Shown piece after piece: positions 4,635 to 20,096 of a DNA stretch of 31,192 nucleotides. The DNA lies in UHGV virus genome UHGV-0019120, one strand, 5' to 3'. Made by a program: the position numbers and the translations under genes. How positions within the stretch are numbered: the first letter of the stretch is position 1; each line of letters opens with the position of its first letter. Source of the stretch: a virus. A model generated the notes under the pieces. The model did no database searches, was not told where the DNA came from, and was given only the letters and a program-made list of their open reading frames with translations.

Positions 4635-5146
4635 TGATGGCCCCCGTCATTTCTGGTGCTTTTCACCGTGCGGCTTCTTAAAAACCTGCCATCACGAACA
4701 ACAGACACTTCTCGTTTACCCAACCTCATTTCACGGCGGTAACATTCAGAAAATGCCTCGTCCGGCATCATATAAATGCGACGCTTCGCCTCCGTATCCA
4801 GAAGGGAACGGCTTGGGGTTACATATAAGAACGACTCATCAATAGGGACAAAACCACGAGCAAGAATTGCTGGCAGAATACCAGGAAGAACGCAGAAAAC
4901 AGCTCCACGATGCAGCAACATCTGGTACTCCATGACCTCCGTAATCCCCGTAACGACTGTTACGGTGTCACGTCTGTTACGGCTGGCAACCAGTCGCTGC
5001 ACACCTCCAATTTTCTGCTCTACAGATAGACGTTTGCTATCGTTATCAATATGATCGATAACAAATCCTTTAATCGTTTGATCAAGGTAGTGCACCACCT
5101 GCGATTGAATCTGGTGATTATCACCAAAGAAGGCCAGAATCATCAT
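4631..5146 (-). CDS. hypothetical protein
   Basis: 171-aa ORF inside the minus-strand operon; no motif recognised. Confidence 0.45.
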   Translation of the reverse strand: MMILAFFGDNHQIQSQVVHYLDQTIKGFVIDHIDNDSKRLSVEQKIGGVQRLVASRNRRDTVTVVTGITEVMEYQMLLHRGAVFCVLPGILPAILARGFVPIDESFLYVTPSRSLLDTEAKRRIYMMPDEAFSECYRREMRLGKREVSVVRDGRFLRSRTVKSTRNDGGHQ

Positions 5147-5637
5147 TCCTCAAGCCTCCCAAGTGCTGAACGCCGGGCGTTGCTAATCTCCTTATGAATC
5201 AGCTCGATATCGCTGGAATCTTTATTCTTAAGCTCCAGCACGGTAATCGCATCACGAACCTCTGAAACGGTTACGTGTGAGTGTTTCCAGCGAGCAATGA
5301 ATCGCGGACCGCGTAGATTGCAACGCTCCGCAGGCATCCCCAGCTCAGAGAAAACCGCTTTCAGCCTTGATAAGCAGTTAACAGGGAGATTCCCTTTGAT
5401 CTTGTTCTGCCGAACCGATGTGCCATCGCTACGCTGGCGCTGACGTTCGGCAAAATCTGCCGCCCATTGCTGGACGTTAATCCGGCCTTCCGAATACGCC
5501 ACCAGCAGCGTCAGGTTATCCGCACGAGGGAATCTCTCGAAGCGATACCAGGCACCAATCAGTGATGACGTAAAGCCAAACTTTCTGGCAACACCAATTT
5601 GGCCTCCATTTTCGTCAACCCACTCCTGAAAGGTCAT
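5143..5637 (-). CDS. putative Cro/YdaS-like HTH regulator with C-terminal extension
   Basis: 164 aa; N-terminal GGQIGVARKFGFTSSLIGAW...P resembles the YdaS/Cro-type HTH; transcribed divergently from the CI-like gene with shared operators. Confidence 0.45.
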   Translation of the reverse strand: MTFQEWVDENGGQIGVARKFGFTSSLIGAWYRFERFPRADNLTLLVAYSEGRINVQQWAADFAERQRQRSDGTSVRQNKIKGNLPVNCLSRLKAVFSELGMPAERCNLRGPRFIARWKHSHVTVSEVRDAITVLELKNKDSSDIELIHKEISNARRSALGRLEE

Positions 5638-5656
5638 TTAACGAACTCCAGTTAAA

Positions 5657-5774
5657 ACCACGATACGTGGTATTAAAACCACATATCGTGAGTTTTTCAA
5701 TGGGCGAAACAAAAAATAACCTTCTATTTGTGGTCCACCTCTCGTCTTACCATGTGAAAACCACTAAATGTGGT
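5657..5774. promoter_or_regulatory. operator cluster in the divergent immunity promoter region
   Basis: ACCACGATACGTGGT (5657-5671), imperfect ACCACATATCGTG (5678-5690), half-site TTTGTGGT (about 5727-5734), ACCACTAAATGTGGT (5760-5774); all follow ACCAC-N5-GTGGT. Confidence 0.6.
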
Positions 5775-5811
5775 AATGTATAAATAACCCACCATTCACG
5801 ATTGATGAGAC

Positions 5812-6468
5812 ATGAAAAGCAACGACGAGAACATCAAGAAAGAAATAGGTCTGCGCATTCAGACTCTACGGAAACAATCCGGCATGACTGCCGGAGATCT
5901 CCAGCAAGTCACTGGAATAGGCTTAAGCACCTTGCAGAACTATGAGGCCGGATTAAGACAACCATCTATACCTGCCATCAAGAAAATCGCGCACGCCCTG
6001 AAAGCATCAGCGCCTTATATCGCGTGCTTAACAGATAACCCGTTCCCACCCCAGAATACTAACGCTCCTGTTATTCCTGGGCTTGTAGCTATAAAAAATG
6101 ACATAGCATCGCACGCCGGAGAAAAGCCAGTGCTGGCGATAGAACAGGAGATTCTACGAAGCAAGAACATCAACCCATCGTCTCTGTCAGTTCTCCAGAG
6201 CAACGATGAGTTAATGTCACCAACAATATCCCCAGGCTCCCAAGTCCTGATTAATACAGACGATACAGAGATTCATGAGGGGATCTATGCCCTTGAAGAC
6301 AGAAATGGCCTGGTTGTTTTGAGGCACTGTAGAGTCATACCGGGTGACAATGCTGTTATGCTGTCAACCGAAAGGGATGCTGAAATGAACACTAAGCATC
6401 TGAATAACGAGGAATTTAAGCGTTATAAAGTTCTTGGCCGCGTAGTTAGTGTTGTCAACTGGTTATGA
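5812..6468 (+). CDS. CI/LexA-type prophage repressor (HTH_XRE plus S24-like C-terminal domain)
   Basis: 218 aa; N-terminal HTH (LRKQSGMTAGDLQQVTGIGLSTLQNYEAG), C-terminal LMSPTISPGSQVLIN and FKRYK...GRVVSVVNWL resembling the LexA/CI Ser-Lys autocleavage domain. Confidence 0.75.
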   Translation: MKSNDENIKKEIGLRIQTLRKQSGMTAGDLQQVTGIGLSTLQNYEAGLRQPSIPAIKKIAHALKASAPYIACLTDNPFPPQNTNAPVIPGLVAIKNDIASHAGEKPVLAIEQEILRSKNINPSSLSVLQSNDELMSPTISPGSQVLINTDDTEIHEGIYALEDRNGLVVLRHCRVIPGDNAVMLSTERDAEMNTKHLNNEEFKRYKVLGRVVSVVNWL

Positions 6469-6510
6469 TACACAGCACGGCGAAAGCCGTGCATTTCTAC
6501 GCTCAAAAAA

Positions 6511-6525
6511 ACCACATTTTGTGGT
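6511..6525. promoter_or_regulatory. operator copy downstream of the repressor gene
   Basis: AAAACCACATTTTGTGGTTTT palindrome (core 6511-6525) adjacent to TTGACA at 6528. Confidence 0.5.
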
Positions 6526-6560
6526 TTTGACAACATGTAAAAGTATAAAAGAGGCTACGC

Positions 6561-8252: not shown

Positions 8253-8276
8253 TAAAAAAGGCCCCCGAAGGGGCCT
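8253..8276 (-). terminator. intrinsic terminator for the minus-strand small gene
   Basis: GGCCCC-CGAA-GGGGCC hairpin; A6 on the plus strand gives a U-run on the minus strand. Confidence 0.55.
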
Positions 8277-8281
8277 AATCG

Positions 8282-8404
8282 CTACTTGCTGCTAATGTTT
8301 ATCGTCACATTCAGAGCGTTATCAGTAATCTTCCAACCCTCCCCATGTGGCGTAAACAAAGCCCCAGTAACAACGATAAAAATACACATACAGTATTTTT
8401 TCAT
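8282..8404 (-). CDS. small hydrophobic peptide (about 40 aa)
   Basis: MKKYCMCIFIVVTGALF... with AAGGG RBS and own terminator; track ORF 8282..8464 is longer. Confidence 0.3.
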   Translation of the reverse strand: MKKYCMCIFIVVTGALFTPHGEGWKITDNALNVTINISSK

Positions 8405-8802
8405 TGTATGGCCCTTACAGGCCGTTTCACGGCATCCCCACCGACGAAAACAACGCGAGAGCAAGCACGGCTGCTTGTGCTTGCATGTACGGCAACGGAG
8501 AATCCTCCCCTAAAGTCGGTGCCCGGGTGCGAATCGGCGGGAAGGTCCACAGGTATTTTACGATTATTTTAAGATTAGTAATAGGAAAGAAATTAAACGA
8601 AAAAACTCGTTTATTTTCACAAAATCAGTAACCTACCCACAATCTGTGAGTTTGCAGGCACAACAAGAACCACAATTTTTTGAAGCATAATAGTGGACTA
8701 TTATTACCTTTTGGGTAAAATTAACTTGCTGCTTGTGCTTGCGTGGTTGTTTATACAACGACGTTATGCTGAAAGGACCGCGAATCCGATCAGCACGAAA
8801 GA

Positions 8803-8828
8803 ACCGTCCTCAATAGGGCGGTTTTTTT
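8803..8828 (+). terminator. intrinsic terminator within the non-coding region
   Basis: ACCGTCCT-CAAT-AGGGCGGT stem (one G-U wobble) followed by T7. Confidence 0.5.
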
Positions 8829-8883
8829 GTTTCTGCCTACCAATAAACCCACGCTATGTGGTTGTCTCTGTTAAAATCCCGCC

Positions 8884-8994
8884 GTATTGACATGAATGCG
8901 CCATTGGTGGACACTTTCCGAGCCGTAGCAAAATCTACGGTCGGGATTGGAACCCCGTAGACACAATGGCGCATACCGCGTTAGCGGTTTTTTT
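8884..8994 (+). ncRNA. candidate structured small RNA (c4-like antisense regulator)
   Basis: Extended -10 TGtTAAAAT near 8866-8874; 9-bp outer stem 8898-8906/8964-8972 enclosing two hairpins, one with loop ATTGGAAC; ends at short hairpin plus T7 (8975-8994). No ORF. Confidence 0.35.
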
Positions 8995-9160
8995 ATGCGT
9001 AAAGCACTGCTACACCCAAATTATGGTGGGGCGTGCGGGGGAGTCGTAAGACTCGCCGGTTCGTCATTGTGTCCGGTAGTTCCAACCCTGCACGTCTCAC
9101 CACCCAATGATTGGAACCTGACGGTGGTGAGTATCCTTAACCTTTAAGGGAATCATCACA

Positions 9161-9352: not shown

Positions 9353-10494
9353 AAACGCTTCCGACCGTTAACACCCTACAGCCTATCCTGCATAACCAAA
9401 TCCCTGTCATTACTACCGAGTTACTAGCACAGCTTTACGGCACTGAGCCGGTGCGTATTCGCCAGAATCATCATGAGAACAAAGCACGTTTCGTTGAAGG
9501 GAAACACTTTTTCAAAGTTGTTGGTAATGACCTTAAAGAATTGCGGGTAGCTTTAAACTACTCTCAAAATCCAGTTTCACCTAAAGTCCGCTCCCTCATC
9601 CTCTGGACAGAACGCGGGGCTGCACGTCACGCTAAAATGCTCGAAACCGATCAGGCGTGGGATGTATTCGAACGGCTGGAAGACTGCTACTTCAACCAGA
9701 ACGCGCAAACGGCCGCGACCGTAACCGTCTCACCAAACAATGCTCGTGAGGTTGTCGATACGCTCAACGCTAAACCAATGTATTACGTTAAGGTGTGCAA
9801 CAACGAGCCACTCACAACCTCAGCCGATGTTGCCCAGGCATTCAGCACCACAAACAATTCCATCGTTATGGCCATCGATGCGTTACGCATTCCTCGCACA
9901 GCTGCGGCGCGTCACTTCTTTAAAGAACAACGACCGCTGGAAGGAAGCGACCGCGAAATAACAATCTATCGCATGACAAAAGACGGATTTACCTTGCTCA
10001 TGGAAAGTATCGACGGTCCAGGCGTGAAGGATATCAAGCTGGCCTACATTGAAGCCTTTAACGCTATCAGCAGCATGTTAAAGGCAGAATACGAGCGAAT
10101 GCTATACAACCGACTGTATCAGGAAACAAAGATTATCCGAACGGCAACAGAACATCATCGGCTATTAACGGAACCAAACTACCGCAAGACACTAATCAAA
10201 GAGTTTGACAAGGCGACGGAGAAAACTAAAGCGGCACTAAATCTACCAACAATGACTAAAGATGATGTGATATCAGCCTTACTTCTTGATCTGCTCAGAA
10301 ACGTCAGAGCACTTATCAGTTTTGACGAAAACCTGAATCCTCAGCTCAAGCTACTACCACCGACAGGCAAAGTAGTCGACCAGGCTGATCACAACAGCAT
10401 ACTCAGCGTTCTGGATGCAAACCTGCCAGCCAGGACACTACAGGATCTGATAAAAACATGTGCTGATAAGCTGGCACAGAAAAGCAGACCATAA
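9349..10494 (+). CDS. phage antirepressor / regulatory protein (ORF6N-like plus Rha-like domains)
   Basis: 381 aa; N-terminal ITTELLAQLYG...EGKHFF...ILWTERGAARHAKMLETDQAWDVFERLEDCYF resembles ORF6N; central TTSADVAQAF...YRMTKDGFTLLM...IEAFN resembles Rha. Confidence 0.7.
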   Translation: MKTLPTVNTLQPILHNQIPVITTELLAQLYGTEPVRIRQNHHENKARFVEGKHFFKVVGNDLKELRVALNYSQNPVSPKVRSLILWTERGAARHAKMLETDQAWDVFERLEDCYFNQNAQTAATVTVSPNNAREVVDTLNAKPMYYVKVCNNEPLTTSADVAQAFSTTNNSIVMAIDALRIPRTAAARHFFKEQRPLEGSDREITIYRMTKDGFTLLMESIDGPGVKDIKLAYIEAFNAISSMLKAEYERMLYNRLYQETKIIRTATEHHRLLTEPNYRKTLIKEFDKATEKTKAALNLPTMTKDDVISALLLDLLRNVRALISFDENLNPQLKLLPPTGKVVDQADHNSILSVLDANLPARTLQDLIKTCADKLAQKSRP

Positions 10495-10498
10495 CTAC

Positions 10499-10524
10499 AA
10501 GGGGCTACGGCCCCTTACTCTTTT
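10499..10524 (+). terminator. intrinsic terminator after the antirepressor gene
   Basis: AAGGGGC-TACG-GCCCCTT hairpin followed by T-rich ACTCTTTTCTCTCT. Confidence 0.6.
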
Positions 10525-10693
10525 CTCTCTTATCAACACCAGAGACTTTCTGAAAATCCTTTCGAATAGCGTCAGCGTCACGCGCCAAGCCCATACTCGA
10601 ACGTGTCGCCATATGACGAAAATGATCAACTGCCGGAAACAAAGAAATAATGGACCCAATAGCTTGCAGCAAACTCGCTTTTCTACGCATCAT
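10505..10693 (-). CDS. hypothetical small protein
   Basis: About 62 aa from ATGATG at 10693 with GGTGGA RBS; track ORF extends to 10717 with a GTG start. Confidence 0.3.
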   Translation of the reverse strand: MMRRKASLLQAIGSIISLFPAVDHFRHMATRSSMGLARDADAIRKDFQKVSGVDKREKSKGP

Positions 10694-12549: not shown

Positions 12550-12849
12550 TTAGACATGGAACGCTACTCGCTTTCCTGTAGGAAGCTCAACATCCAGGCT
12601 TAATTTGCCTCCCATAGCTTCAACGTAACGCTTTAATGTCGCCAGCTTTAAATCATTTCCGCGCTGCTCCAGCTTTGTTACTGCTGGCTGGCTTATACCC
12701 ATCGCCTCAGCAACCTGTTTTTGTGATAACTGGAGTTCTTCACGCATCATCTGCAAGCCGACCTCAAGAATCATCTCATCTGCCATTTCTTTAATTCGCG
12801 CCTGGCTTTCAGGTGAACGGCAGGCAATCACCTCATCTAATGTTCTCAT
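12550..12849 (-). CDS. HigA-like XRE-family antitoxin
   Basis: 99 aa; HTH LSQKQVAEAMGISQPAVTKLE; start overlaps toxin stop (ATGA at 12846-12849), downstream of the toxin as in HigBA-type modules. Confidence 0.7.
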   Translation of the reverse strand: MRTLDEVIACRSPESQARIKEMADEMILEVGLQMMREELQLSQKQVAEAMGISQPAVTKLEQRGNDLKLATLKRYVEAMGGKLSLDVELPTGKRVAFHV

Positions 12850-13196
12850 TACTTGCTCTCCAGTGTGTTCAGATGTGCTGCAAACTCATCCTCAGCTATA
12901 CGCACCAGTTTTTTATAAAACCGCTTATCGTTACTTTTGTCTCCTGCACAAAGAACGATGGCCCGACGAATCGGATCGAACGCATAAAAGGCTCTTATCG
13001 GACGGCCAGAAAACTGAACGCGAAGCTCTTTCATATTTTTGTACCGAGAACCTTTTACGGTATCGGCATATGGCCTGGGTAACTCAGGTCCGTAAACCTG
13101 TAGATTTTTCAAATCAGCCAAAACCTTTTCCTGAAGAGCCTCTTCTTGCTCATTTAGCCAGTCGTCAAATCGCTGGCTAAAAAGTACCGTCCACAT
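12849..13196 (-). CDS. HigB/RelE-superfamily toxin (Gp49-like)
   Basis: About 116 aa from ATG 13196 (AGGA RBS); the ...YAFDPIRRAIVLCAGDKSNDKRF... C-terminus resembles phage Gp49/HigB-type toxins; track ORF 12849..13316 is longer. Confidence 0.6.
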   Translation of the reverse strand: MWTVLFSQRFDDWLNEQEEALQEKVLADLKNLQVYGPELPRPYADTVKGSRYKNMKELRVQFSGRPIRAFYAFDPIRRAIVLCAGDKSNDKRFYKKLVRIAEDEFAAHLNTLESK

Positions 13197-13440
13197 GCTC
13201 AATCCTATAACCTGTAGTTTATACCACTGACTATATAACCCGTAGGTTATAATTTCAAGAAAAACGGGGCTATTTAACATAATGGACGTTATCGGCACCA
13301 CCGGATCACCGTTCATTGTCGGATCTAAAAAATCCGCTCAAAAGATCATGTTTTCCTGGGCGTTTTCCACCGTTTTTTATGTTGCTTATTTGTTAATGAA
13401 ATCTCGTTTTCAGTTTCGCCTCATTTTCGACGCGAAAGCC

Positions 13441-14658: not shown

Positions 14659-15639
14659 TTAATGTTGGAGTGATTTCCAGGTCTTTCTTAACCTGTTATA
14701 ACGCTGCTCAACGAGGGATCGTAAATATGCAAGGTCAGCTCCAGGATACATGCCATCAGCAAATTCCTGGCTAACCTCTCTAGTGATTTGATGACGAAGT
14801 TCGGCCTCTCCCTTTTCCCGAACAAGACGCGCAGCTCTCTCCGCTGCTTTCTGTTTTGCCTTTATCTCTCTGGCCGTCTTCCTCTGACGCCATACATTCT
14901 CCATCTGCTCCTGAATAACAATACGCTTATAATCAGCCTCCGTTATCGCTTTTTTAAGCCGTTCGCTATTCCTCGCATTGAAGTAATTAAGTTTCTGGCT
15001 AACCGCACGTCTCCATGCTTGTTCAGTAATACCAACGGTTTCCAGCAGTTGATCACGAATCTCTATTTTCGCAGGCCAATACTGTTTATTCACCCGATCC
15101 CAGCGACGTTCATAATCAATAAAACCTAACGCTTTCAGTTGCGACAACGCCCTTGTACAGCGCGTTATAGACTTGTTCCCAGCTTCGGATACGGTAGACA
15201 GGCCGCAAAAATCAGACAACGCCTCAGCACTGGCCAGAACCCGCTTAGAAATGATGTTTACATGGTACAACATCGCAGCAATCAGAGCATTAAACGCCCG
15301 ACGACGATGTTCGTTTATCCGGCGTTTCCGCTCTGACGGTTGATTAACGTAGAACGCAACCTCACACGTAAGATCACGACCATTAATGCGCTGTAAAGCA
15401 TCAGATAACACCAGCGGCAGCTTGTGCGTATGGCGCTTTGGAGGCTGGAACTCCGGCGACAAATTACAAACGTAAGCTGAACGTAGAGACGGCATTGGTC
15501 TATCCATATGTTCGCTCTTGCGTCCACGGAAAACCAACGTATAATGGGAGTTGTCGAGGCGCCCATGGATTGTTGTTGTTGGTTTTCCGTGGATGTCGCA
15601 AGAAGCCCGCAGATTTATCTGCGGGCTTTTTGTTTCCAT
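14659..15639 (-). CDS. repA: IncFII-type plasmid replication initiator RepA
   Basis: Central LSTVSEAGNKSITRCTRALSQLKALGFIDY closely parallels R100/R1 RepA1 as I recall it; Arg/Lys-rich coiled C-terminus also similar. Start uncertain: ATG 15639 or internal ATG 15507. Confidence 0.75.
   Translation of the reverse strand: METKSPQINLRASCDIHGKPTTTIHGRLDNSHYTLVFRGRKSEHMDRPMPSLRSAYVCNLSPEFQPPKRHTHKLPLVLSDALQRINGRDLTCEVAFYVNQPSERKRRINEHRRRAFNALIAAMLYHVNIISKRVLASAEALSDFCGLSTVSEAGNKSITRCTRALSQLKALGFIDYERRWDRVNKQYWPAKIEIRDQLLETVGITEQAWRRAVSQKLNYFNARNSERLKKAITEADYKRIVIQEQMENVWRQRKTAREIKAKQKAAERAARLVREKGEAELRHQITREVSQEFADGMYPGADLAYLRSLVEQRYNRLRKTWKSLQH
15520..15635 (+). ncRNA. candidate antisense copy-control RNA (CopA-like) opposite the repA 5' region
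   Basis: 15-17-bp perfect inverted repeat (15524-15538 / 15578-15592) then a strong plus-strand intrinsic terminator (15603-15632); no plus-strand coding potential. Promoter not identified. Confidence 0.35.
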
Positions 15640-15690: not shown

Positions 15691-16105
15691 TTTACGAGAA
15701 CTCTACCACAACACTTTCGGTCATGCACGAAGTCTCTCACTGATCGAACGATAATCCACCAGTAAAAGGATCTAAATTGGATCTCGTTTTGCGAGCATCA
15801 TACTACTGGCCTAACTCCAGTCAATGATTCCCAGCCAGAAACCTGCGGTAAACTCATCGTTCAGCAATATGCTGTCCGGCTTCAAAGATAAGGTGACATC
15901 ATCCCTTAACAGCGCGGCCAGTTCAGTTAAAGGGCTGTTCTGATTTAATGCTGGCCACTCATACCTGGTAATAAGTGGTCAGTCTTAACACTCACCATTT
16001 GATTGCACCCGTGTTGACGATTTGTTACTGGATATCAGACACGCTGGATAGCCAGTAGAAACATACCATTAAAATTATTACAATAATTGGTCACATGATT
16101 ATCTT

Positions 16106-16669
16106 ATGCTGAATAATAAAGATATGAATATTAATGAACTTAAAGACTGTATTCACTATGAAGTAATCGGTAGCGAGCGTCCTTTCTCCTGGCGAAAGGC
16201 AATTGTTCGCGCAATAAAACATAGAAGGGTTCGTTATTTATTTTGGTGGCGCATAGCCAAATACCTTTTTGATAAAGGCGGATACTGTCGGAAGATTGCG
16301 GGAAAAATAGAACGTTTCATTCTTGATAAATATAATGTAACAGTCCCTTTAACTGTAAATATAGGGAAAGGCTTTGATATTTCTTATCTCAACAGTGTTG
16401 TTATCGGTCACAAAGTAACAATCGGTGAAAATTGTTCAATTAAGCCCGGAGTAACTATTGGACTTCGCGGGGAATTTAATGATATGGATATTGTTATAGG
16501 GCATAATGTGACCATTGGTTGTAATGCCACCATTCTTGGTGGCAAAGTGCGTATAGGAAACAATGTCACAATAGGTGCTCATGCATTGGTATTGCATGAT
16601 ATTCCTGATGATTCAACATTCATCACTAAATTTCAGTCTGAAGTTATCTGCTCGTCCTCCCGAACATAA
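16106..16669 (+). CDS. hexapeptide-repeat (left-handed beta-helix) acyl/acetyltransferase
   Basis: 187 aa; repeated [LIV]-G-x-x-x-x-I-G hexapeptides; only plus-strand gene next to the tail module; 3' end overlaps the convergent fibre assembly gene. Confidence 0.6.
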
Positions 16670-17250
16670 CCCTGATTCATCAGCTCTGGCCATACGATAT
16701 CCGGAGCTGTACTGGTGTCAATTCTACTCACTAATACTCTGTATTTTCTCCAGGAATCCAGTTGTGAATTTTCCTCGTTTGTTGCTATTTCAAGATTAAC
16801 TGCATCCTGCAGAATTGCGATGTTATCTGTTGCTTCCTGGATCAACCTTGCCTTTTTCTCTTCCGCTTCCCGTATCCGAAACAGTTTTTCTGCTTCCTCA
16901 TCCGTCACCCAGGATACGCCGTCCCACTTCTGATACTCCCCTGCTGGCGACAACCAGGTGACATTCTCTGGTAGCGGTCCGAGTTCAGAAATAAACAATG
17001 CGTCCCCCGACGCCACGTCATAGACCGTTTTACCACGATGGTCTTCAACAATATTCCACGATTCATTTTCACTGTTAAAAACTGCCACAAAGCCAGCAGG
17101 AATTTCCGGTGGGGCGATATCTGTAGAATTAGCTGGCAGCCCTGTATGAGGTGGAATATATGCGTCACCTTCACCAATAAACTCATTAGTTCCGGCCAGC
17201 AGGTTATAAATTTTTACGGTACGTGATTGTTCACTCATTCTGAATGCCAT
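16633..17250 (-). CDS. tail fibre assembly protein (gpG/Tfa-like)
   Basis: 205 aa immediately downstream of the tail fibre; sequence style typical of Tfa chaperones. Confidence 0.8.
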
Positions 17251-20096
17251 TATGCAAGCCTCACAATATAATTAAATGCGATGTTTTTAACGGTGTTTTC
17301 CGCGTTACCAGCAGCGTTAACGGTGATGGTGTGTCCATGTGAACCAATCGCAACAGAGTGCGTATGAGCGCCAATACCAACAGTGTGTGCATGTGCCCCA
17401 GCACTTGTAGCGGTACCTGATACTGAGTGGGTATGTGCGCCAGAAGAAGGCACAGTTCCATTCCCCACCACCGTGCCACTTGATGAACCATCCAGCCAGT
17501 CGAAATTCATACCGCCACTGTTTGGTCTCCTTAATGGAACGGTATGAGTATGTGCGCCAGCACTATTTGCAGTACCAGATACATTATGGGTATGTGCACC
17601 TGTGTTATTCGTTGATTTAGTACCGTAATCAAACGACGATGTGGTTTTCGTACCCAAATCCGTATTGGATGCGCTGGCACTGTGGGTGTGCGATTTAATG
17701 CCATCCTGTTCCTGAGACAATACGGCCCGACCACTGGCGGGTTTGCCCTTGATTGTCCAGCCGCGCATATCTGGAATAACACCAGAAGGATAGGCAATAG
17801 CCAGTTTCGGATATGCTGCCTTATCAAACGTCTGCCCCTGCATGATTGCATAACCTGCAGGTGGCGTATCTGATGGCCACGGCAGCGGAACACCTGGCGG
17901 AAACGCTTCAATATTTGCCGAGCCGTCAAATTTTACGCCGTTAATTGTCCTTGCCGTTTTCAGCTTTGTTGCTGTAGCAGCATTGCCGGATAGTTCGCCT
18001 GAAAGACCACCGCTGAATGTCTGTTTCGCCATCCATGTCTGAGCTTCGTCGATAATTGGCACACGTCTTGTCGTGATCGTGCGGCTTCCCGGATTTCCTG
18101 AAATGCGAACCATAAAAAAGCGGTAGTTGGCTTTACTTACAGTGCTGCGCCATACATGCATTGAGCGTCCCGAACCAGAATCATCACTCGGACCGACTGA
18201 GATGTTTATCAGGTTGCCATCAATGACGCCCCAGTCCATACCGTCGGGAATATTGGTCATGTTATCAAGCCGAACGGTTATCAGACTGCCCGGCACAAAA
18301 TCGTAGGTCTGCCAGTCCAGGCTGGTGAGCTTTGCCACAGCACCGCCGATACCCAGATTCAGGGGAAGTGAATACGAGGTGTAGACTTCCCGCCATTCGC
18401 TCCATGAGCTGCCGGTAAAGACGCGCTCAAAGGTGCGGCCTTTAAGGGTTGTACCTGTTCCGGCAGTTGTATAACGCTGCCATACATTAACACCATCAAA
18501 CCGCCTCAACACTTCCAGAATACCGAGGACTGTCACGCCGTTTCCGTCCAGTACTGGACCGTTGGTCGCTTTACCTGTAACGCTGTAAATACCTGGTGAA
18601 GTCACATCATTCAAATCCCCGTCGTAATAACGACTCTCTGACTGATGACCGACTCTTAACCACGGTTCCCACTGCGGATTTGATGCATCCCAGCTTGCCG
18701 CAAGGCAGCGGACGTACATATTTCCACGGCGAGTGGTATAACGTTGCGTTCTTCCATAATTCCCGCCTTCGAGGATCTCAAGCGTCCCCTGAGCAAAGCC
18801 GCCTTCCTCTGGATAATTGCGTTCATATGAAGCTATAGCCGAGCTACTGTTACGCCATAAACCAAGATGCTCGGCGGCTCCAAGCGTATTCAGGTCTATA
18901 GTCGTACTCAAAGAGCGGGTAGCTGATTGAGTGTGACGCCATATGCCCCACGGACCATCAGAGCCATTCCACTTATTGGCGAGTCTGCGTATGTATACAT
19001 TGCCGTCTCTCGTGGTGAAGCGTTGCGTACCTGCAAAATTGCCGGCAGCAAAAACCTCAAGCACACCGACAGCATTATCTTCCGGGAAATTTTTCTCCAG
19101 TGTTGCGTTAGTTGAGGTAGCTTTAGACCAGATCCCCAGATAAGCCTTAACGGGACCAAATGTATTCAGATCAGCATCAAGCGGCATTTCGCCATTGTTT
19201 TTCATAAACGTCAGGCTGGTAACGCCAACATTGTCCAGAAAAGCTGATTTATCCTGGATATCTGCACCGTTCTGATTTTTCGCCAGACGTGAATTTGCGT
19301 TGTCATTTGCTGCCTTGACCGCTTTTGGCGTTGCCGCCTGCGTTTCAGACGTACTGTTAGTGGCACTACTGAGCTGAACTATCCCTTTTTGTGCCGTGGT
19401 GGCATTCTGGGCGGTATATTTTCCGTCAGCCAGGTCATATGCAGCCTTAACAGCCTTAGGCGTCGCTGCGAGCTTTTCAGACGTGCTATTGGTGGCATTA
19501 CTGAGTTGAACAATGCCTTTTGATGTTAAAGTTGCATCAGGATGATTACGTGATTGCTCATGTTTTACAATAGCTTGCTTAAGCCGCTTTGCTGAAACAG
19601 CCAGGGAATCATCTGTACCTGCATCAATTTCTTGTTCATTAGCAAATCTTGCTACTCCAACAACAGTTTCGGTTGCGGGAGGGTTAATAAACTCAACATC
19701 ACCAAATGTAATGTTTTTAGTATCAAGATTTTTAATTGCTATATCACTTGATATTAAAGCAATTGTAGAAGATGCTTTATTTATTATTACTTGTTCTTGC
19801 GAGTATACAGCAAACAATGTTCCTTTATTTGTATACAAACCTATTGTATGGACAACATACTCATCTTTACTATCATCCTTCGCAGTTACATGAATGGTAT
19901 CAGGAGAAACGACTTTGCCTCCTATTGTGGTAAGTCGCTTTATTTCATCTGTTATTTTTGTTTGTGTGGTTGATGTGGCATAATATCTACTACCTAAACC
20001 AACAGAAACGATCTCAACTTTATTTGTTCCAGTCTTGTTGGCATTAACCAGCGCCTTACGCCCGGCGTCAGTCATCGTAAATAATAATTTACTCAC
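17250..20096 (-). CDS. tail fibre protein (P2 gpH-like, His-box C-terminal domain)
   Basis: 948 aa; [16 protein letters not shown] and duplicated QLSxATNSTSE..[10 protein letters not shown] repeats match P2 gpH as I recall; C-terminal GAHTH repeats typical of receptor-binding tips. Confidence 0.85.

Follow-up and report, generated by a model that had tools for sequence, protein, structure and literature searches.

A putative cargo gene of a mobile tail fibre cassette in Escherichia coli phage-plasmids encodes a serine acetyltransferase-like protein with a predicted remodelled active site

Acyltransferases of the hexapeptide-repeat superfamily are built on a left-handed parallel beta-helix (LbH), a fold in which O-acetyl transfer is normally crippled once the general base has been lost. 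The serine acetyltransferase (SAT) CysE uses an isoleucine-terminated C-terminal tail to bind CysK, and NeuO has a catalytic histidine and varies its phase through heptanucleotide repeats at the 5' end of its gene. NeuO, the polysialic-acid O-acetyltransferase of E. coli K1 encoded by prophage CUS-3 (PDB 3JQY), is described as phase-variable (PMC3046976). In CysE, His158 is the general base and is stabilised by Asp143, and Gln178, Arg192 and His193 line the serine pocket (review PMC9547175). As regards the slots in which temperate phages carry such cargo, P2 has a moron position between G and FI, located 3' of tfa and in the opposite orientation, in which strain CFT073 holds neaT, a gene that is expressed from its cloned native upstream region (PMC3573123).

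The locus described here lies in a stretch of 31,192 nucleotides of the virus genome UHGV-0019120 (the window), which belongs to a ~47-kb circular phage-plasmid of E. coli. The region 15700-17300 (1.6 kb) is 99.8-99.9% identical to pSCU-204-5, to more than 15 further plasmids and to the partial genome of phage vB_EcoM-613R2. An earlier note, made from the letters of the window, had proposed that a hexapeptide-repeat acetyltransferase is carried there as a cargo gene beside the tail fibre module. The transferase-like gene and its neighbours are the following, with residues numbered throughout from the ATG at 16106:

14659-15639, minus strand: IncFII-type repA, left neighbour of the transferase-like gene
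16106..16669, plus strand: coding sequence of a hexapeptide-repeat (LbH) protein with a predicted SAT fold; intact ORF of 187 aa from the ATG at 16106
16124..16669, plus strand: the same coding sequence from the likelier start, the ATG at 16124, in frame with 16106; 181 aa
16633-17250, minus strand: tail fibre assembly gene tfa (Caudo_TAP, E 4.6e-40), convergent with the transferase-like gene
17250-20096, minus strand: tail fibre gene, 948 aa, with Pfam fibre repeats and a Collar domain

Thus, the arrangement that had been claimed, with an intact ORF between repA on the left and a Caudo_TAP tfa followed by the fibre gene on the right, is the one found. The gene is also the sole plus-strand gene in the tail neighbourhood, as the RefSeq annotation of a near-identical plasmid places everything from repA through the tail sheath on the opposite strand. 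Its 3' end overlaps the convergent tfa, as had been stated, by 37 nt (16633-16669), and a comparison of C-termini attributes this overlap to a 15-aa C-terminal extension of this tfa variant past ...WPEL. The overlap as a regulatory feature was set aside, the sister tfa variant showing a 10-nt gap instead. Taking into account that the RefSeq annotation of the near-identical plasmid begins at 16124, that variants at 82-86% DNA identity have no in-frame upstream extension, and that the homology of a chromosomal paralogue starts at 16122, the true conserved start of the gene is probably the ATG at 16124, which gives a protein of 181 aa. The AT-rich patch in which the gene was said to lie holds only with respect to its immediate neighbours: its GC content is 37.2% (GC3 30%), against 47.6% in repA, 46.0% in tfa and 47.3% in the fibre gene, but the tail genes farther right have 39.8%. 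The Rfam search returned no RNA family inside or beside the gene, its three matches falling at 8254-9107 instead.

The protein is a homologue of the hexapeptide-repeat transferases, as had been supposed, with two stretches matching Pfam Hexapep (PF00132; E 1.1e-12, 47.5 bits against a cut-off of 27). In the AlphaFold2 model, which represents a monomer with no ligand (pLDDT 91), four N-terminal helices are followed by a beta-helix; the left-handed parallel beta-helix that characterises the hexapeptide superfamily is thus predicted, and the top matches of a fold search with this model were all SATs. On the model, the protein has a SAT-type LbH fold.

The protein falls outside the CysE, WcaB and xenobiotic acetyltransferase (XAT) families. 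Its best NCBIfam models are EpsC (7e-23) and WcaB (3e-17), with CysE also top-ranked, and all of them stay below their cut-offs: 81.2 bits against 150 for EpsC, 62.4 against 196 and 60.1 against 194.65 for WcaB, 71.5 against 210.65 for CysE TIGR01172, and 44.7 against 397 for NF008349. The possibility of a xenobiotic acetyltransferase, raised as one branch of the earlier proposal, is contradicted by the Vat and CatB models, which give 22-27 bits against cut-offs of 300-475, and by the SAT-type fold. SATase_N (PF06426) is absent from the window protein in the Pfam search; a genuine Proteus CysE, encoded beside a member of the family, matches it at 1.5e-37. The C-terminus reads ...SSSRT, without an Ile-terminated tail, and no polysaccharide biosynthesis cluster surrounds the gene, whose neighbours are repA and tail genes. 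The sole match in the PHROGs search was phrog_2154 (PHROG 2154), annotated as 'unknown function', and none of the 5027 PADLOC models matched the protein. GenBank and RefSeq records often carry the name 'serine acetyltransferase', a label that is probably wrong. In the literature no functional study was found, and the protein is mentioned only as an unexplained "serine acetyltransferase" (P1-like plasmid JL22, Citrobacter phage phiNP; PMC9603915, PMC6456863).

The register between the window protein and CysE was obtained by three methods (phmmer to four solved SATs, MAFFT with homologues, and hhalign against E. coli CysE), and it was identical in all three alignments. The sequence used in hhalign for E. 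coli CysE reproduces, in its numbering, the positions given in the literature. According to these alignments and to the clade comparison presented below, the following residues occupy the CysE active-site positions:

16340..16489, plus strand: remodelled active-site region
16340-16342, plus strand: Thr79, in place of CysE Asp143
Ser93, in place of CysE Asp157
16385-16387, plus strand: Tyr94, in place of CysE His158
16442-16450, plus strand: Lys113-Pro114-Gly115, with Pro114 in place of CysE Gln178
16484-16489, plus strand: Met127-Asp128, with Met127 in place of CysE Arg192 and Asp128 in place of CysE His193

Neither His158 with Asp143, nor Arg192-His193 with Gln178, is retained in the window protein. 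The earlier note did not contain this result: as aligned, the protein has neither the canonical general base nor its partners, Tyr94, Thr79 and Pro114 standing in their places, and so acetyl transfer by the usual mechanism cannot be assumed. In that note, housekeeping serine or maltose acetyltransferases as closest homologues, with no surface phenotype on expression, had been taken to speak against the proposal; the nearest solved and curated relatives are indeed SATs, but the protein lacks every defining SAT feature.

The family was sampled from 238 loci in species-representative genomes, metagenomes and viral contigs, which yielded 145 unique full-length proteins. In most of them (120/145, from other Enterobacterales; called His-type here), position 79 is Asp, Glu or Gln and position 94 is His; in the remaining 25 (Tyr-type), Thr or Lys stands at position 79 and Tyr at position 94. 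All collected sequences with at least 52% identity to the window protein by local alignment have Tyr, and the His-type proteins reach at most 52% by local and 49% by global alignment. A neighbour-joining tree, itself a rough one, recovers the Tyr group as monophyletic, and this group also takes in the metagenomic proteins P0007-P0014 and a protein of Hafnia phage yong2 (53% identity). The histidine is kept in 78 of 81 more distant homologues and in 123 of the 125 representatives of 50%-identity clusters drawn from a library of 1.84 billion proteins, the two exceptions in this last set being one Asn and one independent Tyr (P0240). As far as these comparisons go, the canonical base and partner residues have been lost in one single clade. 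In distant homologues position 79 is variable (D, S, Q), and given that the equivalent of Asp143 varies outside the close family, the argument rests mainly on His94 and on Gln114, the latter present in 107 of the 120 His-type members. The Arg-His pair is not kept in the His-type family, so that even the ancestors were probably not serine-specific.

Among Tyr-clade gene pairs, dN/dS (Nei-Gojobori) is 0.07-0.14 over a dS range of 0.05-0.72, being higher only in pairs with L201, a rearranged copy, and these values indicate that the Tyr clade is under purifying selection. Eight residues (Tyr94, Val84, Lys113, Pro114, Gly115, Arg121, Met127 and Asp128) are kept in 10-11 of 11 representatives of the clade, which span 52-100% identity; all eight differ from the His-type consensus and fall on CysE active-site elements, and the structural glycines and small residues of the LbH are common to both clades. 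Tyr94 is invariant, though one transition would alter it. Such conservation speaks for a pocket that has stayed functional while its ligand or mechanism changed, and against decay, and is not proof of catalysis. Over 60 independent loci have the ORF at full length, and so do 182 of the 184 E. coli genomes that carry it. Pseudogene decay was ruled out by dN/dS and ORF integrity.

Among 5426 complete E. coli genomes, the gene is present in 184, in which it occupies 158 chromosomal and 59 plasmid places; occasional copies are truncated (L201, L206, P0004). The cassette described below is found in ~47-kb phage-plasmids, in ~94-101-kb P1-like plasmids and in P2-like prophages, L004 among them, where gpU and G flank the gene. 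Members of the family also occur outside phages. In 71 of the 5426 E. coli genomes, O145:H28 being an example, the chromosome has a Tyr-type paralogue (Lys79/Tyr94) of 73-76% identity, flanked by ybjL and rcdA and with no phage genes nearby; this location indicates that the function of the protein needs no tail fibre. His-type members adjoin tfa in at least 21 loci, Citrobacter phage phiNP included. In Proteus, other His-type members directly follow a genuine cysE, in the order secB-gpsA-cysE-X-trmL-ugd, and these Proteus relatives are the only ones that sit near an O-antigen-type region (ugd, GT2). Further members are placed among unrelated genes of the chromosome; in Rahnella, the genes on either side encode a POT transporter and a GGDEF protein.

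Of the 69 Tyr-clade loci whose sequence extends 500 bp or more past the gene, 67 have a convergent tfa directly downstream of it, as detected with a home-made HMM that may miss unrelated fibre chaperones; 49 loci show a spacing of -37 nt and 18 one of +10 nt. The elements that delimit the unit are these:

15853..15943, plus strand: 3'-end remnant of a gpU-like tail gene (P2), ending in ...SSFSNMLSGFKDKVTSSLNSAASSVKGLF and the stop; from translation and blastn against prophage locus L004; a pseudogene in RefSeq
15919-15937: terminator-like hairpin within the gpU-like remnant
16056..16084, plus strand: promoter-like site TAGAAA-17 nt-TACAAT, from a consensus scan (9/12 positions), ~40 nt 5' of the ATG at 16124
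17250..19393, minus strand: co-transferred 3' portion of the fibre gene (its distal, receptor-binding part), from the ends of homology blocks and segment-wise identities

The gpU-like remnant marks the left joint of an imported cassette, with a homology boundary at 15853 in 29 loci. This joint lies at 15853 in P2-like prophages, at 16036 in P1-like plasmids and at 16055 in a variant group at 82-86% identity. The right joints all lie inside the fibre gene, at 17435-17449, 17882-17903, 18404, 19228 and 19376-19393. In the variant group, divergence is similar across the cassette (88-89% for the transferase-like gene, 82-86% for tfa and 83-94% for the fibre tip), and prophage L204 has a fibre shaft that is 90% identical but a different tip and a different tfa C-terminus, together with a His-type transferase. 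Taking into account this parallel divergence and the swap in L204, the transferase-like gene belongs to an exchangeable host-range cassette. Judged by the homology blocks, the gene, tfa and the fibre tip are passed on together as one cassette. The idea of a cargo gene of the fibre module is therefore upheld by its atypical GC, its opposite strand, the promoter-like site and the co-transfer with tfa and the fibre tip. The shortest upstream stretch common to all cassette variants begins exactly at the promoter-like site, the -10 hexamer of which is TATAAT in the P1-like variant, and expression in the lysogen may proceed from the gene's own promoter.

The explanation that we tentatively prefer, and which we hold to be plausible while falling somewhat short of probable, is that of a selected, lysogen-expressed, moron-type cargo gene of a mobile fibre-tip/tfa cassette, whose product has a remodelled pocket and is likely an altered acyltransferase. 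A cassette of fibre tip, tfa and transferase would be exchanged among temperate myovirus-type elements of E. coli. The gene would most likely be expressed from its own weak sigma-70 promoter, in the resident prophage or plasmid and outside the late tail operon, which has the opposite orientation. Its product would be a cytoplasmic, probably trimeric LbH protein, with a short helical N-domain followed by the LbH domain in the architecture of SATs. Its ancestry would lie among SAT-like transferases of ~180 aa widespread in Enterobacterales, which have the CysE-type His and its Asp/Glu partner without the Arg-His pair; by analogy with WcaB and EpsC, the ancestral acceptor may have been a sugar or an envelope precursor, which seems likelier than L-serine. 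In the Tyr lineage, the pocket would have been rebuilt through the changes of His to Tyr94, of Asp/Glu to Thr79 and of Gln-Asn to Pro114-Gly115, and with a new Met127-Asp128 in the active-site loop. From the conservation pattern, the pocket presumably still binds a ligand and the protein is presumably functional, most likely as an acyl-CoA-dependent transferase with a changed acceptor or mechanism. The base might be Asp128 of the neighbouring subunit, or Tyr94; or else an amine nucleophile would need no base. Co-inheritance with the receptor-binding cassette suggests, speculatively, a fibre-specific role in which the envelope of the lysogen is modified against re-adsorption or superinfection. 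The surface branch of the earlier proposal, with polysaccharide acetylation, receptor masking or superinfection exclusion, would agree with this linkage, but it is complicated by the lost catalytic residues and by the lack of polysaccharide genes beside the gene. It has to be noted that the linkage with tfa could also reflect hitch-hiking in a hot spot for cargo insertion.

A serious alternative, and the main rival, is a non-catalytic LbH pseudoenzyme with fold and pocket kept, which would sequester a nucleotide-sugar or acyl-CoA, or would form mixed trimers that poison WcaB-like host enzymes, whose active sites are located at subunit interfaces. We consider it possible and yet doubtful, as the conservation of the replacement residues and their restriction to the clade point to a rebuilt pocket and not to a relaxed one, the filling of the same tfa-side slot by His-type relatives elsewhere (phiNP, L204) suggests one shared role, and the independent His-to-Tyr change in the distant P0240 hints that Tyr is functionally tolerated. 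A combined formulation, in which the Tyr clade is either an LbH transferase with a new mechanism (a Tyr94/Asp128' pair or an amine acceptor) or a pseudoenzyme, carried as a fibre-matched receptor editor or as a blocker of a host acetyltransferase, appears unlikely. That the gene is a decaying or neutral hitch-hiker, a broken enzyme gene passively carried with the fibre cassette, could be argued from the lost catalytic residues and the three truncated copies; the low dN/dS, the intact ORFs and the invariance of Tyr94 make it scarcely credible.

We regard as improbable a role in anti-phage defence or superinfection exclusion unrelated to the fibre receptor, comparable to those of P2 fun(Z), old and tin, for a resident of a cargo hot spot. 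The slot downstream of tfa, in opposite orientation, is that of the P2 moron position between G and FI (PMC3573123), and P2-like phages have hot spots that abound in defence systems, often without annotation (PMC9122126, PMC13586616); against this, the hot spot of these two studies adjoins cos, which is a different slot, the literature on P2/P4 hot spots describes neither a single-gene LbH defence system nor this slot or protein, the PADLOC models gave no match, and members of the family are also found at ordinary sites of the chromosome (following cysE in Proteus, between POT and GGDEF genes in Rahnella). A genuine serine O-acetyltransferase, raising cysteine synthesis in the manner of an auxiliary metabolic gene, would agree with the best curated and solved matches, which are SATs, and with the naming in GenBank and RefSeq, but the replacement of His158, Asp143, Arg192 and His193 alike, the low scores against the cysE and EpsC models, the lack of SATase_N and an end in ...SSSRT with no Ile tail leave it extremely improbable. 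The same can be said of a xenobiotic or antibiotic acetyltransferase of the Vat, CatB or Maa/LacA type: the matches to these families are weak and partial, covering one or two LbH coils with 22-33 bits against cut-offs of 300-475, and the helical N-terminal domain and the architecture are those of SATs and not of XAT or Maa proteins.

The correction of the SAT annotation matters in that hundreds of database records say "serine acetyltransferase", and authors have been puzzled as to why phage-plasmids would carry one. The Tyr clade is a natural and strongly conserved case in which an LbH acyltransferase has exchanged its general base (His to Tyr) along with the partner residues, and it offers a simple test case of an alternative mechanism in the LbH fold versus conversion to a binding protein. 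The fibre tip and its chaperone determine host range, and the gene is inherited as a unit with them in P2-like prophages, in P1-like plasmids and in a ~47-kb phage-plasmid that is common among clinical E. coli. If the envelope were indeed modified, the phage susceptibility, and perhaps the serology, of carrier strains would be affected; this would be a second case, after NeuO, of a receptor-modifying enzyme linked to its own receptor-binding protein, and the receptor-binding module with its own receptor editor would form a portable unit.

With respect to known enzymes, the window protein is ~90 residues shorter at the N-terminus than CysE, for which structures from E. coli (1T3D), Salmonella (8I04) and soybean (4N69) are solved, and, unlike it, is without SATase_N, the catalytic and serine-binding residues and the CysK-binding tail, scoring far below the cut-offs. 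WcaB, of colanic acid synthesis, and EpsC are alike in size (~160-190 aa) and fold class, and the His general base that they use is also kept by the His-type relatives of the window protein; the latter, in contrast, has Tyr for the catalytic His, scores below cut-off and is encoded outside a polysaccharide cluster. QdtC, WlbB and AntD/FdtD, which are base-independent LbH sugar N-acetyltransferases, have another N-terminal architecture and lower similarity to the protein than SATs, and nothing at the window locus indicates an amino-sugar acceptor.

As for phage-borne systems, NeuO belongs to a different LbH subfamily, and no NeuO-like tandem repeats were found in 15900-16750. The partner of NeuO is a capsule-degrading tailspike, whereas the fibre in the window is lambda-Stf/Tfa-like without a depolymerase domain; as with NeuO, the gene is one of a temperate phage lying beside that of the receptor-binding protein, as seen in 67/69 loci and in its co-transfer with the fibre tip. 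The cargo genes of P2 'moron position 2', Z/fun and neaT, occupy the same slot in the same orientation as the window gene, convergent with tfa, and neaT is likewise AT-rich. NeaT is an integral-membrane Acyl_transf_3 protein (PF01757) with a fold unrelated to that of the window protein, and Z/fun is unrelated too. The window gene has the traits of a P2-type moron, being variably present, opposite to tfa and of atypical GC, and, unlike what has been reported for Z/fun and neaT, it also moves with the fibre cassette into P1-like plasmids and the ~47-kb phage-plasmid.

The last gpU-like codons preserved near the transferase gene record where the cassette came from:

15853-15943, plus strand: remnant of a P2 gpU-like tail gene, its last ~30 codons, ending in SSFSNMLSGFKDKVTSSLNSAASSVKGLF and the stop
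15919-15937: terminator-like hairpin after the gpU-like remnant

This remnant is the scar left by import of the cassette (transferase gene, tfa and fibre tip) from a P2-like prophage. In the P2-like prophages L004 (NZ_CP028192.1 1720303-1739003), L201 and L204, the operon for sheath, tube, tape measure and gpU is convergent with the baseplate-fibre operon, whereas in P2 itself the order is collinear, and the transferase gene sits between these two operons. In L004, gpD is truncated beside ogr. At its 3' end (16633-16680), the tfa of the window encodes a C-terminal extension of 15 aa compared with a sister variant ending in VWPEL, and it is because of this extension that tfa overlaps the transferase gene by 37 nt.

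The family also has chromosomal members. Of 5426 complete E. coli genomes, 71 (O145:H28 and O157:H16 among them) carry a Tyr-type paralogue (Lys79/Tyr94; 73-76% amino acid identity) flanked by ybjL and rcdA, with no phage genes nearby:

5001-5552 in loci L111 and L114: ybjL-rcdA Tyr-type paralogue
953620-954570 in NZ_CP028379.1, an example E. coli chromosome: the same paralogue

His-type relatives in Enterobacter bugandensis and Intestinirhabdus alba follow a ybjL-type permease gene (561-563 aa; same protein cluster). In Proteus spp. (L010-L013, L017, L020, L023, L027 and L061; around 5156-6560), the gene order is secB-gpsA-cysE-X, X being a His-type member, with trmL and ugd or glycosyltransferase genes coming next. 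X directly abuts the genuine cysE, so the short SAT-like paralogue forms a tandem pair with a true SAT, at the border of an apparent polysaccharide locus. Replacement of the catalytic His is recurrent in the superfamily, at low frequency, because a distant cluster representative (P0240, 32% identity) has independently changed His to Tyr at the same position, and P0135 and three other distant homologues carry Asn there.

Elsewhere in the phage-plasmid, Rfam matches at the gathering score are found a short way upstream of a gene with an ORF6N domain, which probably encodes an antirepressor:

8254-8550, minus strand: ryfA RNA
8922-8994, plus strand: isrK
9019-9107, plus strand: C4 antisense RNA (P1/P7-type immunity I)
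about 9502-10644: ORF6N-domain gene

Given this arrangement, an immunity module of the c4/ant type seems to be used.

Probable maintenance genes and hairpins at the replication gene are also present:

12553-13199, minus strand: RelE/ParE-family toxin gene and adjacent helix-turn-helix gene (RefSeq annotation of an identical plasmid)
15523-15538/15578-15593 and 15599-15614/15617-15632: two perfect or near-perfect hairpins with 16-nt arms, 5' end of repA

The helix-turn-helix gene probably encodes the antitoxin, and the pair, ~1.5 kb from repA, probably contributes to plasmid maintenance. The hairpins (15523-15632) are similar to the region of IncFII-type replicons in which an antisense RNA controls copy number.
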